64,000 bases of DNA from a virus (lineage: Duplodnaviria > Caudoviricetes). A model generated the notes under the pieces. It saw only the letters and a list, made by a program, of their open reading frames with translations, searched no databases and was not told where the DNA came from. Position numbers and translations under genes: made by a program. This document shows, piece by piece, positions 6,429 to 58,894 of the stretch; the stretch's first letter is position 1, and each line of letters opens with the position of its first letter. The stretch lies in the IMG/VR virus record IMGVR_UViG_3300036793_000060, positions 13,090 to 77,089 of that record. The stretch is one strand, 5' to 3'.

Positions 6429-6728
6429 GTGAAGGCAAGAGGATGGGCTATCCAGTACAAGTTCCCGCTCCCTTATGACATCATCGTGACGAACGACGTC
6501 GGCGAGCACGTGATCGTGAATGTCCAGTCAATCGAGGTGCCTTTCGATACCGAGGCGTCGGCACTGGGCGCAGCCGACGACGGACTTCCGAGGGTTATCG
6601 CCAAGAACCAGGTCGTGGAGGGGGAGGTAATCACCGATGATAGCGATCAGCAATTCAGAGATCGCGCTGTGGAAGCGGTGCCGCCGTCAGTGGTACCTAA
6701 GGTATTACCTTGGCATGCGGCTGGCTGA
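6429..6728 (+). CDS. Possible hypothetical protein, 3' end overlapping the nuclease gene
   Basis: Coding-like codons from GTG 6429; start uncertain; ~90-nt overlap with the next gene. Confidence 0.45.
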   Translation: MKARGWAIQYKFPLPYDIIVTNDVGEHVIVNVQSIEVPFDTEASALGAADDGLPRVIAKNQVVEGEVITDDSDQQFRDRAVEAVPPSVVPKVLPWHAAG

Positions 6729-7641
6729 CGAGAACGCCACCGGCCCGATGCAGCAGGGCACGCGCATCCACACTGCCCTGGAGGCCCAGTACGGGTACGG
6801 CGTCCCGGCCCACAAGGCGCTGGCCACGATCTACGACCACGCCGAGGCCCGGTGGCCCGAGCCGGCCGACGTCGCCGCGCTGCGGGCCGAGCGCGAGACG
6901 TCGCTGATCATGGTCAGCGGCTACCTGGAGTGGGTAGACGAGACCGGCGCCGACGCGAATCTCCGGGTGGTGGCGACCGAGCGTGACATCAGGGTGCCGA
7001 TGCCAGGCATGCCGGAGGTGCTGCTGCGGGCCAAGCTGGACCAGGTGGTGCTGGACGAGCAGTCAGGAATGCTGTCGTTCCTTGACCACAAGACGTCGGC
7101 CAGCTTCGAGAAGCACGAGCACCTGGTGCTCGACCCGCAGTTCCGCCACTACGCGCTCATCCAGCGGCTGGCGCGGCCAGCCGGCGCTCCGCAGGTCTAC
7201 GGCGGGATCATGAACACGCTGCGCCGGGTCAAGCGCAGCTCGGCCAGCAAGCCGCCCTACTACCAGCGGGATGCCGTCCGGTTCAACGACGAGGCGATCG
7301 AGGCCACGCTGATGTCCGTGCGCGGCGCGGTCATGGAGATCGTCATGGCGCGCAGCGGGTTCGACGAGATCCGCGAGGCCGGCAACGTGCTGGAGTCCGT
7401 GAACGCGGCACAGCGGCTGATCACCTACCCCAACCCGCGAGTTCGCGACTGCAGCTGGGACTGCCCGTTCACGTCGCTGTGCCCGATGATGGACGACGGC
7501 AGCGACTGGGTGGGCGCCCTGATCGCCAGCGGCCGGTACGCCCAGGGCGACCCGTACGGGTACTACGGGGACTCACTGCTCCCGCTGGTCCTGGCGGCGG
7601 GTAAGGTGGGCGGCACGGAACAGGGAGAGGGCAACGGATGA
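6637..7641 (+). CDS. PD-(D/E)xK RecB/Cas4-like exonuclease
   Basis: ISNSE...KRCRRQW, GTRIHTALE, E...KLD...LDHKT, QxxHY, C-terminal CSWDCPFTSLC. Confidence 0.9.
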   Translation: MIAISNSEIALWKRCRRQWYLRYYLGMRLADENATGPMQQGTRIHTALEAQYGYGVPAHKALATIYDHAEARWPEPADVAALRAERETSLIMVSGYLEWVDETGADANLRVVATERDIRVPMPGMPEVLLRAKLDQVVLDEQSGMLSFLDHKTSASFEKHEHLVLDPQFRHYALIQRLARPAGAPQVYGGIMNTLRRVKRSSASKPPYYQRDAVRFNDEAIEATLMSVRGAVMEIVMARSGFDEIREAGNVLESVNAAQRLITYPNPRVRDCSWDCPFTSLCPMMDDGSDWVGALIASGRYAQGDPYGYYGDSLLPLVLAAGKVGGTEQGEGNG

Positions 7642-8393
7642 GGCCTCAGGGGCTGTCGTTCCTGATACACGCCAACGCGAAGGCAGGCAAGTCAACGCTG
7701 TGCGACAGCGGGCCGCAGCCACGGCTGATACTCGACGTCGAGGGCACGGCGGTCTGGACGCCGTCCAGGAAGACGGAGTGGGATCCGATGCGGACGCCGC
7801 CACCCCAGCTGGGGCAGCGGGTTACTGCCGGGTACGGCCAGCCGTCGGTCAACCCTGACTGGGAGTCCTGCCTGGTCATGGTGCGCGACATGTCCACCAT
7901 CACCTCGGCCTACAAGGTGCTGTCGAGCGGTCAGCACCCGTTCGCCAGCCTGTCGTTCGACTCGATCACCGAGGGCCAGCAGAGGATGATTGACAAGCTG
8001 GTCGGCACCAAGAAGATGGAGTACGACCACTGGGGGTCGATACTCCGGCAGATCAGCTCGATGACCAGGCAGTTCCGCGACCTGACCACGCACCCCACCA
8101 GGCCGCTGTGGTCGGTGGCGTTCGTGGCCGGCACGCACTGGGACAAGACGACCAGCAAGTGGCGACCGCTGGTGCAAGGGCAGTCCCAGGACTTCCTGCC
8201 GTACTACGTCGACATCGAGGGGTACCTCGGTGCGTCGCCGGGCGGGTCGAGAGACCTGCTCATCGGCCCTCACCCCCGCTTCGAGACAGGCGAGCGGGTA
8301 GCGGGCCGGCTCCCTTACTCGATGCAGATCGGGTACCGGGGCAGCCAGGGTTACACACTTGAGGGCATGGTCCGCCAGGTTCTCGCAGCCTAA
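7638..8393 (+). CDS. AAA-family ATPase (Sak4/AAA_24-like recombination protein)
   Basis: HANAKAGKST Walker A, ILDVEG, FDSITE; sits between the nuclease and the SSB-like gene. Confidence 0.85.
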   Translation: MRPQGLSFLIHANAKAGKSTLCDSGPQPRLILDVEGTAVWTPSRKTEWDPMRTPPPQLGQRVTAGYGQPSVNPDWESCLVMVRDMSTITSAYKVLSSGQHPFASLSFDSITEGQQRMIDKLVGTKKMEYDHWGSILRQISSMTRQFRDLTTHPTRPLWSVAFVAGTHWDKTTSKWRPLVQGQSQDFLPYYVDIEGYLGASPGGSRDLLIGPHPRFETGERVAGRLPYSMQIGYRGSQGYTLEGMVRQVLAA

Positions 8394-8415
8394 GCCGGGA
8401 AGGAAAGGCACGCAC

Positions 8416-9429
8416 GTGAGCAGCATGTACGACTACAGCGCACTCTGGGGCCAGGCGGACATGACCGCCGGGCAGCTCCTGGAGGCAGGCGACTATGACC
8501 TGGTGGTCGAGGACGCCGAGTGGGGGTCGACCAAGAGCGGGGACAAGGGTGCCTGGACGATCAAGTTCCGGGTCACCACCGGCCCGCACGCGGGCGCCTC
8601 GCTGACGCACACCATGAGCGTCTCGCCGACCAGGAACGACGGTGACCCCAACAACGCGGGCCTGGGCATCATGTTCCGCGAGCTGGGCGCGCTCGGCATT
8701 CCCGTGCCGCCCAACCAGCCCTTCTGGGCGCTCGGGTGGAACGAGCAGAACGTCGCGCAGGCGATGAAGGGCCGGCCGTGCCTCGCGCACATCATCCAGA
8801 ACGAGTGGGAGAACGGCACCAACAACAAGGTGCGCAAGATCCGCGACCCTCGCCCCGGTGCCCCGACCGACTGGCCGCGCAGCCAGGGCCAGCCGCAGCA
8901 GGCCCAGCAGCCGCAGCAGCAGGGCTGGGGACAGCCTCCGCAGCAGCAGGGCCAGTTCGCCCCGCAGCAGCCGCAGCAGCCGCAGCAGCCGCAGCAAGGC
9001 CCCTACGGGCAGCCGAACGCCCCGTGGAACCCGATGGCCCAGGGACAGCCGCAGCAGCCTCCCGCGCAGCCTCAGCAGCCCTGGCAGGGCCAGCCGCAGC
9101 AGCAGCAGCCGGTACAGCAGCCGGGCTTCGCGCCCGGCCAGGGCGGCGCCGGGGAGTTCACCCCGCAGGGACAGTCCCAGCAGCCCTGGCAGCAGGCCCA
9201 GCCACAGCAGCCGGCGCAGCCCGGCTACGGCACGCCTCCCGGCCCGCAGCCAGGCCAGCCCTCGCCGTGGAACCAGCAGGCACCGCCGCAGCAGCCCGGC
9301 TACGGCCAGCAGCAGCCCCCGCAGGGGCCGCAGGGGTACCCGCCCCAGCAGCCCCAGCAGGCACAGAACGGGCAGGGTCCTGGCCAGCCACCCCAGGCTG
9401 GCCCGGCCATGCCTCCCTGGGCGCAGTGA
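8416..9429 (+). CDS. DUF669-like ssDNA-binding protein with a long Pro/Gln-rich tail
   Basis: LLEAGDYDLVVEDAEWGSTKSGDKG..IKFRVTTGPHAG N-domain, then ~180 aa of QQP-rich low complexity. RBS AGGAAAGG. Confidence 0.8.
   Translation: MSSMYDYSALWGQADMTAGQLLEAGDYDLVVEDAEWGSTKSGDKGAWTIKFRVTTGPHAGASLTHTMSVSPTRNDGDPNNAGLGIMFRELGALGIPVPPNQPFWALGWNEQNVAQAMKGRPCLAHIIQNEWENGTNNKVRKIRDPRPGAPTDWPRSQGQPQQAQQPQQQGWGQPPQQQGQFAPQQPQQPQQPQQGPYGQPNAPWNPMAQGQPQQPPAQPQQPWQGQPQQQQPVQQPGFAPGQGGAGEFTPQGQSQQPWQQAQPQQPAQPGYGTPPGPQPGQPSPWNQQAPPQQPGYGQQQPPQGPQGYPPQQPQQAQNGQGPGQPPQAGPAMPPWAQ
8880..9420 (+). repeat. Low-complexity CAG/CCG-rich coding repeat (QQP units)
   Basis: Many cagcagccgcag units visible in the sequence. 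Confidence 0.85.
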
Positions 9430-9548
9430 CGGAATACCCGGATCCCGCGCTGCGCTTACAGGGCCGTCTCGTACCCTCCTGGCCGAGGGGCGGGGCGCGT
9501 GGCTCGCCCCCTCTCCGTCACGTGCTTCAGGGGAGGGGGCGGGAGCCG

Positions 9549-9574
9549 GGAATGAAAAGTACCGGCCAGGCGTT
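9549..9574 (+). promoter_or_regulatory. ECF-sigma-type promoter GGAAT-N18-GTT
   Basis: GGAAT gaaaagtaccggccaggc GTTAGAC. Confidence 0.75.
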
Positions 9575-9584
9575 AGACGGAGTA

Positions 9585-9678
9585 CAACAGCAGAACAGGG
9601 TCTCACCGCAAGGTAGGCGGGGGCAGTAAGGTTTCGACCTGAAGCCGCCGAGACGCGACTTGGCCCGTTCTGCTGCTG
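9585..9678 (+). ncRNA. Structured three-way-junction RNA (leader or sRNA) of unknown class
   Basis: Closing stem caacagcagaac/gttctgctgctg; inner gtctc/gagac; hairpin acc-GCAA-ggt; arm ggc-AGUA-aggu-UUCG-accu-GAA-gcc. Confidence 0.7.
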
Positions 9679-9719
9679 CAGAGGTAAGTGAGAGTCACTA
9701 CCAAGGAGAAGGCAAGGAA

Positions 9720-10973
9720 ATGGCACCACAGCTCATCGCCCGCAACGCGAGCGCGCAAGATCTGGTCGCCCTGCTCAACACGCAGAAGGCCGAGAAGCTC
9801 GACCTGGTCGTCCCGGCCGCCAACGTGTGGTCGAAGGACGGCAAGATCGTCGTCAAGAACGCCGAGCCGCAGATCACCGATGAGGGCGTCTCGACGGTCA
9901 ACGGCACCTACCGGCCGACCGAGGTCTTCGATGAGGGCCTGGCCAGCAAGCTGGAGATCCCGAGCAAGTACGTGCAGCGGCTTCGCGCCGACCGGCCCGA
10001 CCTGCTCGACGCCAACGTCAACGGCCTCCTTCACGGGCGGGCGCTGTTCGGCAAGGACGGCACGAGGACCGAGATATACCCGGCCGACACCCGAGCGTTC
10101 CTGCTCCGGCTGTTCCGGGGAGACGGCGGCGAGGGCGTTGCCCGCGCGATGCTGTCTGACCGGTACTCGCTCGGCATGGACAACCTGGACATGCTCACGG
10201 CGGTCATGAAGGGCGTGCAGGACGCGGGCGTGAACGTCATCACCCGCGTGTCCGACCTGTCCGAGCGCCGGATGCGGGTGCGGTTCGAGGCGCCCGACGT
10301 CTACACCCAGGCCCCTGGCCTGCTCGACGGCTACCGGTCCCCGTTCGACGGGGGCGGCGCGGTGCGCCGGGCCGGCAGCTTCAACGAGCTGCGCCAGCAG
10401 TACGGGCAGCACCACATCTTCAGCGAGAAGGACGCGCCGATCGCGTTCATCGGGTTCGACTTCACCAACTCCGAGACCGGCTCCGGGGCCTACACCCTGA
10501 CTCCCGTGATCGAGATGGTGCGGTGCACGAACGGCTGGGTGATGCGGAGGGAGGGCCTGCGCAAGGTCCACCTGGGATCCAAGCTGGAGGCCGGCAACGT
10601 CACCCCCAGCCTGGACACGCTCCGCAAGGCCGGCACGCTGGTCGCGGCCGAGACACGGGACGCGATCAAGCAGTGGCTGACCCAGGGGTACCTGGAGCAG
10701 CTGATCGCCAGCCTGACCGAGAAGGCGGCCACCCCGATCGCCAGCCCCGCGAACACGGTTCCGGCGGTCACCAAGAGCCTCGGCTTCACCTCCGAGGAGC
10801 AGGACGGCATCCTGGACCTGTTCATCAAGTCCGGCCAGCCCACCGCTGGCGGCGTCGCCCAGGCAATCAGCGCCTACGCCCAGATCGTCGAGGACCCCGA
10901 CCGGGCCTACGACATCGAGCTGAAGGCAGTCGACGGCCTCGATGAGGCCGCGCGGATCGGTGCCCGCGCCTAA
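9720..10973 (+). CDS. DUF932/DUF945-like phage protein
   Basis: RAMLSDRY..MDNLD, FDFTNSETGSGA, RCTNGWV, HLG pattern. RBS AAGGA before ATG 9720. Confidence 0.75.
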   Translation: MAPQLIARNASAQDLVALLNTQKAEKLDLVVPAANVWSKDGKIVVKNAEPQITDEGVSTVNGTYRPTEVFDEGLASKLEIPSKYVQRLRADRPDLLDANVNGLLHGRALFGKDGTRTEIYPADTRAFLLRLFRGDGGEGVARAMLSDRYSLGMDNLDMLTAVMKGVQDAGVNVITRVSDLSERRMRVRFEAPDVYTQAPGLLDGYRSPFDGGGAVRRAGSFNELRQQYGQHHIFSEKDAPIAFIGFDFTNSETGSGAYTLTPVIEMVRCTNGWVMRREGLRKVHLGSKLEAGNVTPSLDTLRKAGTLVAAETRDAIKQWLTQGYLEQLIASLTEKAATPIASPANTVPAVTKSLGFTSEEQDGILDLFIKSGQPTAGGVAQAISAYAQIVEDPDRAYDIELKAVDGLDEAARIGARA

Positions 10974-11039: not shown

Positions 11040-11065
11040 GGAACAAGAAGTACCGGCCAGCCGTT
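11040..11065 (+). promoter_or_regulatory. ECF-sigma-type promoter GGAAC-N18-GTT
   Basis: GGAAC aagaagtaccggccagcc GTTATAC, nearly identical to the 9549 site. Confidence 0.75.
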
Positions 11066-11102
11066 ATACTGGCTGAGGGACCGAGAGACGGCCCCGAGGG
11101 AG

Positions 11103-12770: not shown

Positions 12771-12806
12771 AGCAGGCCGGGGAATAACCCCCGGCCTGCT
12801 GGTGTT
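12771..12806 (+). promoter_or_regulatory. ECF-type promoter GGAAT-N18-GTT (12781-12806) inside a perfect 12-bp inverted repeat (12771-12800)
   Basis: agcaggccgggg aataac ccccggcctgct, followed by ggtGTTATAC. Confidence 0.75.
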
Positions 12807-14404: not shown

Positions 14405-14633
14405 AGACCAGGACCGCAGGATCGCGGACAGCGCGCTGTTCCTGCAGACTAGCTGGTACCTGCCGATGGAGGCCGAGCAGCGGACACACGAGGTGACGTT
14501 GCTGCTCCGCGACTGGTACGGCAGCGGCAAGCCGGGCACGATCACGGCGTTCGCGCAGGACCGCCAGCCCAGCGGCGAGGACTGGAAGACAGCCCCGTGC
14601 CGCGTGCAGCGATTGTTCTTCGAGCCGGAGTAA
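14394..14633 (+). CDS. Hypothetical protein
   Basis: Abuts the previous stop; RBS GAGGTGG. Confidence 0.6.
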   Translation: MMCEDQDRRIADSALFLQTSWYLPMEAEQRTHEVTLLLRDWYGSGKPGTITAFAQDRQPSGEDWKTAPCRVQRLFFEPE

Positions 14634-14652
14634 CCGCAGCTCGGGAAAGCAT

Positions 14653-14689
14653 GAAGCCCCCAGGGAGTGCTGATCCTCCTGGGGGCTTC
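14653..14689. terminator. Hairpin at the convergence of the two transcription directions
   Basis: gaagcccccagg...cctgggggcttc inverted repeat. Confidence 0.7.
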
Positions 14690-14722
14690 CTGCTGTCGAC
14701 AGTTCCCCAACTATGACGGCAG

Positions 14723-14983
14723 CTACACTACCGGCCTGCAGCCTGTCATCGGGTCCGCGCCCGGATCCGGGCCGGGAGCCTCCGGCGGCTCGGCCTTCGC
14801 CTTCTCCCTGGCGAACCGCCAGGTGCCGCGCGGGTCGAGCAGGTCAATCACGTGGTCCACGGAGACGTCCGCAGAGCCGCCACGGGACCTTCCCATGGAC
14901 TGGTAGCCCTCCAGCCGGCTGCGGACCCTCAGCAGTGTCTCCTCGGCGCTCTCGCCGCCGCTCCTGCGCCGTCCCAGCGGCAT
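14723..14983 (-). CDS. Hypothetical 86-aa protein, last gene of the late operon
   Basis: ATG 14983 just after the endolysin stop, with RBS GGAG; start re-chosen. Confidence 0.6.
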   Translation of the reverse strand: MPLGRRRSGGESAEETLLRVRSRLEGYQSMGRSRGGSADVSVDHVIDLLDPRGTWRFAREKAKAEPPEAPGPDPGADPMTGCRPVV

Positions 14984-55382: not shown

Positions 55383-55513
55383 TCCTGTATCCTTGCCCTT
55401 GGTTGATGAAAGCCGCTCTGGCGGGGGATCTTGCCAGGGAATTCCCGCCGTGACGGCTGCTCCGCCGACGATAACAGGCCGGACACGACTCTCGCCACTG
55501 AATCGTCAACGAA

Positions 55514-55553
55514 AAGGCCCCGGAACCGCCTGGTCAGCGGAATCCGGGGCCTT
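55514..55553 (-). terminator. Intrinsic terminator
   Basis: aaggccccgga/tccggggcctt stem followed by TTCGTT on the minus strand. Confidence 0.75.
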
Positions 55554-55561
55554 ATTCGCGC

Positions 55562-55654
55562 TTACGGGCAGCCAATCCAGGGCTGCTCCGCCAGCTCGGG
55601 CGCAGCAGGGCTGTAAGGCCCCTGCATCTGCGCGTTCTGGGTTCCCCTGGCCAT
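55562..55654 (-). CDS. 30-aa peptide MARGTQNAQMQGPYSPAAPELAEQPWIGCP
   Basis: Strong RBS GAGAGGAGGAG; stop followed by a terminator. Absent from the ORF track. Confidence 0.6.
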   Translation of the reverse strand: MARGTQNAQMQGPYSPAAPELAEQPWIGCP

Positions 55655-58868: not shown

Positions 58869-58894
58869 AACACCGGCCTGCCGGTGGCTATTCC
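58869..58894 (-). promoter_or_regulatory. ECF-sigma-type promoter GGAAT-N18-GTT with palindromic spacer
   Basis: Minus strand: GGAAT agcCACCGGcaggCCGGT GTTACAC. Confidence 0.75.

Follow-up and report, generated by a model that had tools for sequence, protein, structure and literature searches.

The 94-nucleotide domain at positions 9585 to 9678 of the phage DNA analyzed here is, with a probability that we put near one half, a cis-acting structure in the 5' leader of an mRNA, one that would mainly stabilize or protect this message and would be a lineage-specific elaboration of a conserved hairpin. The domain lies outside any known RNA family, and the evidence does not support a new RNA that is catalytic or senses a ligand. 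A stem-closed fold stands behind an exact promoter match, a hairpin keeps its position in orthologous leaders, and the interior of the element is not conserved among them; we infer that the leader functions at the RNA level and that its effect is stabilizing. The initial annotation had proposed a novel leader switch, ribozyme or sRNA. Its description of a structured RNA leader behind a dedicated promoter holds, but the remainder of the proposal is not supported, as no Rfam family matches and the interior is unconserved.

Genomic context

The virus record is 77,089 bp long, carries direct terminal repeats and is rated 100% complete. The window, by which we mean the whole stretch of 64,000 nucleotides that was analyzed, corresponds to bases 13090 to 77089 of this record. 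It has a GC content of ~68% and belongs to a soil virus with actinophage-like genes. The element occupies a 290-nucleotide gap between a gene for an SSB-like protein and a gene of the phrog_1362 family, in the following arrangement.

6637-7641: PD-(D/E)XK exonuclease gene, upstream of the element
7638-8393: gene for a Sak4/AAA_24 annealing protein, upstream of the element
8359-9429: gene for an SSB-like protein with a P/Q-rich tail, upstream of the element
9431-9456, plus strand: upstream SigR-like site, GGAAT-N18-GCTT, with a degenerate -10, two bases past the SSB-like stop codon
9463-9547, plus strand: two strong hairpins between the promoter-like sites (-55.1 kcal/mol, z -2.3)
9549-9574, plus strand: ECF/SigR-type promoter, exact GGAAT-N18-GTT (5 in the window versus 0.72 expected)
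9585-9678, plus strand: stem-closed structured domain of 94 nucleotides, from folding and shuffles
9683-9702, plus strand: second small hairpin, 8 bp with one bulge and a GAG loop, ending 1 nucleotide before the ribosome-binding site
9703-9712, plus strand: ribosome-binding site AAGGAGAAGG, unpaired in all predicted folds
9720-10973, plus strand: phrog_1362 gene (417 amino acids), first gene of the predicted transcript, encoding a conserved actinophage protein

Relatives of the phrog_1362 protein occur in 239 deposited phage records, where they are annotated as "hypothetical protein", and in more than 200 metagenomic sequences. Because nearly all of the deposited records are Mycobacterium, Gordonia and Arthrobacter phages, the host is most likely an actinobacterium. 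The downstream gene had been called DUF932-like, a label that its product does not bear out: there is no HMM match to DUF932 (PF06067) even at E <= 10, and in a neighbor cluster of predicted structures (TM 0.81) DUF932 is found in 12% of members, so that any kinship would be remote at most. The AlphaFold model of the protein is confident (pLDDT 85.5, pTM 0.81). No sequence match was found in the PDB, Foldseek gave no convincing fold match when the model was compared with the PDB, and the nearest clusters of predicted structures consist of hypothetical proteins. The model thus presents what appears to be a widespread phage protein without a recognized fold or function.

No RNA-binding domain was recognized in the genes neighboring the element, and a tRNA/tmRNA scan of the window detected none. 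In the relative carrying P0005 (a Logan contig), a gene encoding a Ricin_B_lectin domain (391 amino acids) lies between the SSB-like and phrog_1362 genes, indicating that this intergenic position also takes gene insertions.

Promoters and leader layout

The dedicated promoter that had been proposed at 9549 to 9574 is confirmed as an exact ECF/SigR-type match ahead of the element. GGAAT-N18-GTT is the consensus of SigR-type ECF promoters, and the sites of this form in the window are intergenic and ahead of genes. The same type of promoter also precedes the orthologous phrog_1362 gene in relatives. No sigma-70 type promoter (TTGACA/TATAAT-like with a spacer of 16 to 18 nucleotides) was found between 9200 and 9900. 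From established knowledge of ECF promoters, we take the transcript to start at about 9581 to 9583.

The leader of the phrog_1362 gene measures 145 nucleotides, which is unusually long. At five other SigR-type sites of this phage whose downstream sequence was read, leaders are ~25 to 45 nucleotides, and three of these sites, as well as the one at 58869 to 58894, are followed by a hairpin of ~6 bp and then by a ribosome-binding site of the GAGGGAGA type. Among the SigR-type sites read in this phage, that at 9549 to 9574 alone has a long leader. Hairpins begin ~10 nucleotides after the GTT at the 11040, 12781, 58894 (minus strand) and 12219 promoters. Their loops are AGGGA at 12781 and at 58894 (minus strand) and AGAGA at 11040, both of which resemble a ribosome-binding site; the 12219 loop differs from these and is longer. 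The promoter spacers at 9557 to 9575 and 11048 to 11066 contain a near-identical stretch of 19 nucleotides (AAGTACCGGCCAG...CGTTA), which was also recovered by blastn-short as a match between the spacers of the 9549 and 11040 promoters, and this resemblance suggests a promoter duplication.

The degenerate site at 9431 to 9456 is conserved, with GTT, in L088 and L159, two of the related loci described below. The hairpins at 9463 to 9547 are terminator-like, but they have no U tract; the second has an 11-bp G/C stem with a 13-nucleotide loop, and 5 more pairs below a 2-nucleotide bulge. The succession of this upstream site, its hairpins and then the main promoter presents promoter-plus-structure modules in tandem. 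T4-type PeSL cassettes are modules of an early promoter plus a stem-loop, and they share with the present arrangement the repetition of intergenic "hairpin, promoter, hairpin" units in the early/middle region and a conserved promoter sequence. The modules described here differ in that the promoter is of ECF type and in that the variable structure is downstream of it, inside the transcript.

Architecture and stability of the element

All of the helices proposed in the initial annotation are present within 9585 to 9678 at the coordinates given there. Its distances are also correct, in that the fold begins 11 nucleotides past the promoter and ends 41 nucleotides before the ATG at 9720. The parts of the predicted structure are as follows.

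9585-9596 with 9667-9678, plus strand: outer stem, 11 pairs with one A.C mismatch
9597, plus strand: bulged A between the outer and inner stems
9598-9602 with 9662-9666, plus strand: inner stem of 5 bp, GGGUC/GGCCC, with one U.G pair
9585-9602, plus strand: 5' strand of the closing helix (outer and inner stems), partner of 9662-9678
9662-9678, plus strand: 3' strand of the closing helix in the predicted fold
9605-9614, plus strand: candidate C(GCAA)G hairpin, ACC-GCAA-GGU, with a 3-bp stem, a minority conformer in the energy model
9618-9650, plus strand: long arm with an internal loop of loop E/bulged-G type and a UUCG cap

The internal loop of the long arm is a 4x3 loop, with AGUA (9625-9628) opposite GAA (9641-9643), and is flanked by canonical C-G and A-U pairs. 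The UUCG loop (9633-9636) caps a 4-bp AGGU/ACCU stem whose closing pair is U-A. In the three-way-junction fold, A9615 is the sole nucleotide between the two hairpins. The closing helix consists of 11 plus 5 pairs broken by a mismatch and a bulge, compared with the ~20 bp (two turns) of largely regular duplex expected of an RNase III substrate, and its basal stem is built of CAG/CUG-type repeats. The helix starts at 9585 to 9588, 11 to 14 nucleotides after the GTT and close to the presumed 5' end of the transcript. Neither an ATG nor a ribosome-binding site occurs within the 94 nucleotides, and a leader peptide was accordingly rejected.

The three-way junction that had been proposed is supported in its component helices, but as a whole it sits 1.9 kcal/mol above a rod (-40.4 versus -42.3 kcal/mol), which is the minimum-energy fold. 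The rod keeps the closing helix and the arm and adds pairs of 9607-9609 to 9654-9656 and of 9613-9614 to 9652-9653; the result is a longer but irregular helix. The three pairs of the GCAA hairpin have a model probability of ~0.08. The outer stem, the inner stem and the loop-E/UUCG arm are present in all 15 of the lowest-energy folds, these being the best 15 of 94 within 3 kcal/mol.

The stem-closed fold has a z of -3.1 and is better than all 200 dinucleotide shuffles. The opposite strand of the element also folds (z -4.2), and when all 94-nucleotide windows on both strands are ranked after correction for GC content, the element comes 207th of 21,302 (z -2.5, top 1%). Classical terminators are among the strongest structures that this ranking brought out. 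The stability of the fold is therefore moderate and unexceptional.

It had also been argued that three RNA modules together are unlikely by chance. This argument survives for the AGUA/GAA hairpin, whose descriptor has a single match on both strands of the 77-kb genome versus 0.125 expected in shuffles, but not for the GNRA and UUCG hairpins, which are common in the genome (177 and 15, respectively) and not enriched. Any case for more than chance rests mainly on one motif plus its position, rather than on stability. Like the sarcin-ricin and eukaryal loop E motifs, the arm has an asymmetric 5'-AGUA-3'/5'-GAA-3' loop with Watson-Crick flanks, recognized here from sequence and predicted pairing. 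Unlike the sarcin-ricin loop, it has no adjacent GAGA tetraloop closed by C-G; its cap is UUCG and lies 4 bp away. The structure consequently does not mimic the toxin target, and the suggestion of a ribotoxin decoy finds no support.

Searches for homologues

The initial annotation could not assign the element to a known RNA, and a Rfam search of the whole window likewise returned nothing. At gathering thresholds, Rfam 15 detected no family anywhere in the window, with hammerhead, twister, pistol, HDV and hatchet among those covered, and none of its riboswitch, YrlA/Y RNA or 6S models. When 9400 to 9800 (401 nucleotides) was searched at E <= 10, no family had a meaningful score. The best overlapping match, to a microRNA model, scored 17.3 bits against a threshold of 78 bits and involved the long stem alone. 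By eye, the CUGAUGA/GAAA sequences of a hammerhead core are absent, and a resemblance of GAAGCCGCC to twister, also noticed by eye, receives no backing from the models.

Sequence comparison gave a similar result. Searching 9400 to 9800 against the phage collection with blastn returned no match. We collected ~160 loci encoding phrog_1362 relatives for a comparison of leaders, and against these blastn-short found chance 12-mers to 14-mers and nothing alignable to the 94 nucleotides. A covariance model (R1), for which this one sequence with its three-way-junction fold was the input, was searched against 46 related virus records and 11 loci; in the 46 records it found the element itself and no homologue, and weak matches inside coding regions (E 0.04 to 0.7) were rejected as homologues. 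A pattern for the loop-E arm had 0 matches in viral contigs, and its 6 matches in prokaryote genome contigs are about the number expected by chance and lack extended similarity. In viral contigs, the matches listed for a pattern that combines the promoter with ACAACAGCA are dominated by chance occurrences in low-GC phages. In a search of sequencing runs, the element is covered by its probable source run only, a second run covers part of the coding region, and there is no RNA run among the listed holders.

The collection of homologues that had been recommended thus yields none for the interior, whether in the phage collection, the 46 virus records, the ~160 loci or the pattern scans, and the interior is a singleton in every collection searched. 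A mobile repeat of MITE or REP-like type was rejected, because the element is present in single copy in the phage and in none of the loci, records, phage collection or viral contigs.

Short and enlarged hairpins in orthologous leaders

We compared 17 distinct orthologous leaders with the same promoter type, including that of the window. When the leaders are folded individually, a hairpin occurs at a fixed position while the sequence of its stem varies. It begins 9 to 13 nucleotides after the GTT in all 17 leaders with the exception of L159, where it begins 23 nucleotides after the GTT, or 18 nucleotides if the basal stem is counted. Eleven of the 17 leaders are short (53 to 78 nucleotides), and have hairpins of 4 to 9 bp with differing sequences at the same place, including the stems GGACA/UGUCC, GGGC/GCCC, GGGCCGG/CCGGCCC, UUCCGC/GCGGGA, CGGGC/GCCCG and GACAG/CUGUC. 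Against shuffles, the 11 short ones have an average z of -1.7. As read from the individually folded sequences, compensatory variation appears in the basal hairpin alone. MAFFT and RNAalifold gave no consensus structure for the 11 short leaders, because the lengths of their hairpins differ.

Enlarged versions of 65 to 175 nucleotides, with z of -1.2 to -6.8, are found in six lineages, this phage included. They are listed here with the identity of the encoded phrog_1362 protein to that of the window.

This phage: 94 nucleotides, three-way junction or rod
L159: 79% protein identity, 165 to 175 nucleotides depending on where the ends are set, multi-branch
L005: 62% protein identity, 150 nucleotides, five hairpins, z -6.8
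L079: 74% protein identity, 66 nucleotides, three-way junction
L080/L083: 66 to 70% protein identity, 65 nucleotides, plus 134 nucleotides in L083, three-way junction
L293: 65% protein identity, 96 nucleotides, stem-closed with internal loops and short helices

No two enlarged lineages have related interiors, and these cannot be aligned between lineages. Even L159, the closest relative at 79% protein identity, has the basal stem alone in common with this phage. The sequence GTACAACAGCA (9582-9592, 11 nucleotides) is common to these two, and its ACAACAGCA core is also found in L005. In L283, L003 and L006, the counterpart of the inner stem GGGUC/GGCCC is the bottom of the small hairpin, and L080, L083 and L293 have another base in common, UUGCAAGGCC/GGUCUUGCA. 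Across 62 to 79% protein identity, leaders have either wholly different interiors or a mere hairpin of 4 to 9 bp, and none of the orthologous leaders contains the AGUA/GAA motif. Enlargement is distributed patchily over the protein tree, with L159 (79%) and L079 (74%) enlarged and L006 (72%) and L003 (67%) short.

The C(GCAA)G hexamer, an extra-stable loop sequence, recurs in 4 of 11 enlarged elements of the six lineages, the window's own included. Its occurrences number 5 in the sense orientation and 0 in the antisense, versus 0.45 expected, in a test that was chosen after the data had been seen. Enrichment of GNRA sequences in general is weak (5 observed versus 2 expected, P ~0.04). The sense-strand bias lends some support to the GCAA hairpin of the initial annotation despite its low probability in the energy model. 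Moreover, G.U pairs are found in the basal stems of relatives, as is a U.G pair in the inner stem of the window, and together with the sense-strand C(GCAA)G sequences they favor selection on a transcribed RNA over a DNA palindrome. A DNA operator was rejected, as the sequences of the two arms covary and the spacing between them ranges from 3 to ~130 nucleotides.

A box, GGAAUGUCAGACC, is conserved in the stretch from the hairpin to the ribosome-binding site in L003, L005, L012, L089, L098, L160 and L283. It is absent in the subgroup of the window, where the small hairpin at 9683 to 9702 is found instead. Stem-closed, Y-shaped elements of 68 to 80 nucleotides are also present in L005 (2185-2265), L080 (590-665) and L089 (217-285). 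Each is situated between two SigR-type promoters in tandem and has no gene immediately behind it, and they are possible stand-alone small RNAs.

A leader that may protect the mRNA

In the reading that we prefer, the 94 nucleotides would form the 5'-proximal domain of an mRNA that is transcribed from the promoter at 9549 to 9574 and encodes the phrog_1362 protein and the products of the following genes. A hairpin a few nucleotides past the transcript start would be kept across the phage group. Its enlargement in this lineage would have two components, namely the addition of a basal stem of 12 positions (11 pairs), in common with the closest relative, and the gain of a private apical insert of ~60 nucleotides that forms separate capped helices (with UUCG, the AGUA/GAA internal loop and possibly GCAA). 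The compact 5' end could shield the transcript from decay by RNase E or RNase J that depends on the 5' end, and the long untranslated leader would be guarded from attack while the ribosome-binding site stays free. The apical motifs would more likely be devices for stability or folding than a conserved active site.

Several points weigh against a stabilizer. A plain hairpin would suffice for this role, which leaves the elaborate interior unexplained, and the AGUA/GAA loop, being unique in the genome, could hint at a specific protein partner. Also, a start at 9581 to 9583 leaves 2 to 7 single-stranded nucleotides before the stem, which is borderline for protection of a 5' end, and in thermodynamic stability the fold does no better than the top 1% of windows.

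Alternative explanations

The best placed of the alternatives, though still unlikely, is a neutral or near-neutral expansion, in which a hairpin tolerant of insertions in its loop and of lengthening at its base grew by an accident such as palindrome growth or slippage, and no function exists beyond that of the small hairpin. The unrelated interiors, the patchy distribution on the protein tree, the CAG/CUG-type repeats in the basal stem and the unexceptional stability of the fold are all as such growth would leave them. However, the inserts fold well (z as low as -6.8), C(GCAA)G loops on the sense strand are far above background, and large inserts have been kept in six independent lineages.

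A more doubtful proposal is that the loop E and the capped helices bind a phage or host protein, for example in autoregulation of the operon or in control of translation or stability. Proteins often bind bulged-G/loop E motifs, the genome contains no second AGUA/GAA hairpin, and the leader with the element belongs to the gene that opens the operon. Set against this are the lack of the motif in all orthologous leaders even though the protein is 62 to 79% conserved, a ribosome-binding site that is outside the structure, and neighboring genes in which no RNA-binding domain was recognized.

Processing of the leader ranks lower again. An RNase III-like cut of the 16- to 17-bp helix would free a stable Y-shaped RNA, possibly a decoy acting in trans, and would reset the 5' end of the message. 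The long closing helix does join both ends of the element, and Y-shaped elements without a gene directly after them lie between two promoters in L005a, L080a and L089a. Yet the helix falls short of two full turns and is broken by a mismatch and a bulge, and the element has no target complementarity, no second copy and no conservation of its interior. We regard as similarly improbable a broader view, under which the enlarged leaders of this phage, L159, L005, L079, L080/L083 and L293 constitute one class of released, small, stable RNAs whose interiors are under diversifying selection, possibly decoys or scaffolds in phage-host conflict. Such RNAs could be stem-closed, the base being conserved and the interior evolving fast but folding well and having many C(GCAA)G sequences, and the loop-E arm of this phage might then be a specific binding surface.

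By analogy with the HK022 put RNAs, which are cis-acting antiterminator RNAs, two stem-loops might instead modify the polymerase so that terminators are read through. The element directly follows its promoter and its hairpins are one A (9615) apart in the three-way-junction fold, and hairpin terminators, not all of them with a U tract, are numerous in the phage. We nevertheless consider a processive antiterminator very improbable, in that the element has no known similarity to put, the four remaining exact promoter matches of the window have no such element, and the orthologues have a small hairpin only.

A new self-cleaving ribozyme or riboswitch, the class preferred in the initial annotation, would fit a 5' leader whose compact fold has several helices, tetraloops and a motif of loop-E type, but is the least credible reading of all, since a catalytic or ligand-binding core is expected to be conserved and would not be replaced wholesale at 74 to 79% protein identity, whereas here the core is wholly unconserved among orthologous leaders and a singleton in every collection searched, Rfam is empty even at E <= 10 on 401 nucleotides, and the fold is uncoupled from the ribosome-binding site and from any terminator.

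Comparison with known leader RNAs

Stem-loops at the 5' terminus stabilize several bacterial and phage mRNAs, as in the 5' UTR hairpin of E. coli ompA and the stabilizers of B. subtilis phage SP82 and of ermC. The element resembles these in having a stable helix a few nucleotides from the predicted 5' end and a free ribosome-binding site downstream, and here the position of the hairpin is conserved across relatives while its sequence is variable. It differs from them in being larger and branched (94 nucleotides, and ~175 in other lineages) and in having a hypervariable interior, and its 5' end is a presumed one. RNase III sites are known in the leaders of phage early mRNAs, such as T7 R0.3, the lambda N leader and the early transcripts of phiC31. 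As in these, an irregular long helix is found between an early/middle promoter and the first gene of an operon, and the host of the present phage, like that of phiC31, is probably an actinobacterium; unlike these, the closing helix measures no more than 16 to 17 bp, with one mismatched position and one bulge, and the sequences are not similar. With HK022 put, the element shares a promoter-proximal position and, in one predicted fold, adjacent stem-loops one nucleotide apart, but it has an enclosing long stem and is not repeated at the other promoters of the phage.

If the protective-leader reading is true, the element would be of an ordinary type, a 5' leader hairpin, in an unusual state, in which independent lineages have inflated one hairpin to branched domains of 65 to 175 nucleotides that have no sequence in common. 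This patchy, repeated inflation into unrelated branched domains is its sole unusual aspect, and the 94-nucleotide element opens no long-standing question. The series from short to enlarged leaders at one locus offers natural material on leader structure versus mRNA stability in actinobacterial phages with ECF promoters. For motif-based discovery of RNAs it also carries a caution, in that the joint presence of GNRA, UUCG and loop-E motifs in a GC-rich fold is not in itself a sign of a conserved functional RNA.

Other structures in the window

Two further regions rank with the most stable structures of the window, at ~55440 to 55620 on the minus strand (z -4.9) and at ~14590 to 14750 (z -3.4). 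Both include classical G/C hairpins followed by U runs and are probably intrinsic terminators, the one near 14660 possibly being bidirectional.
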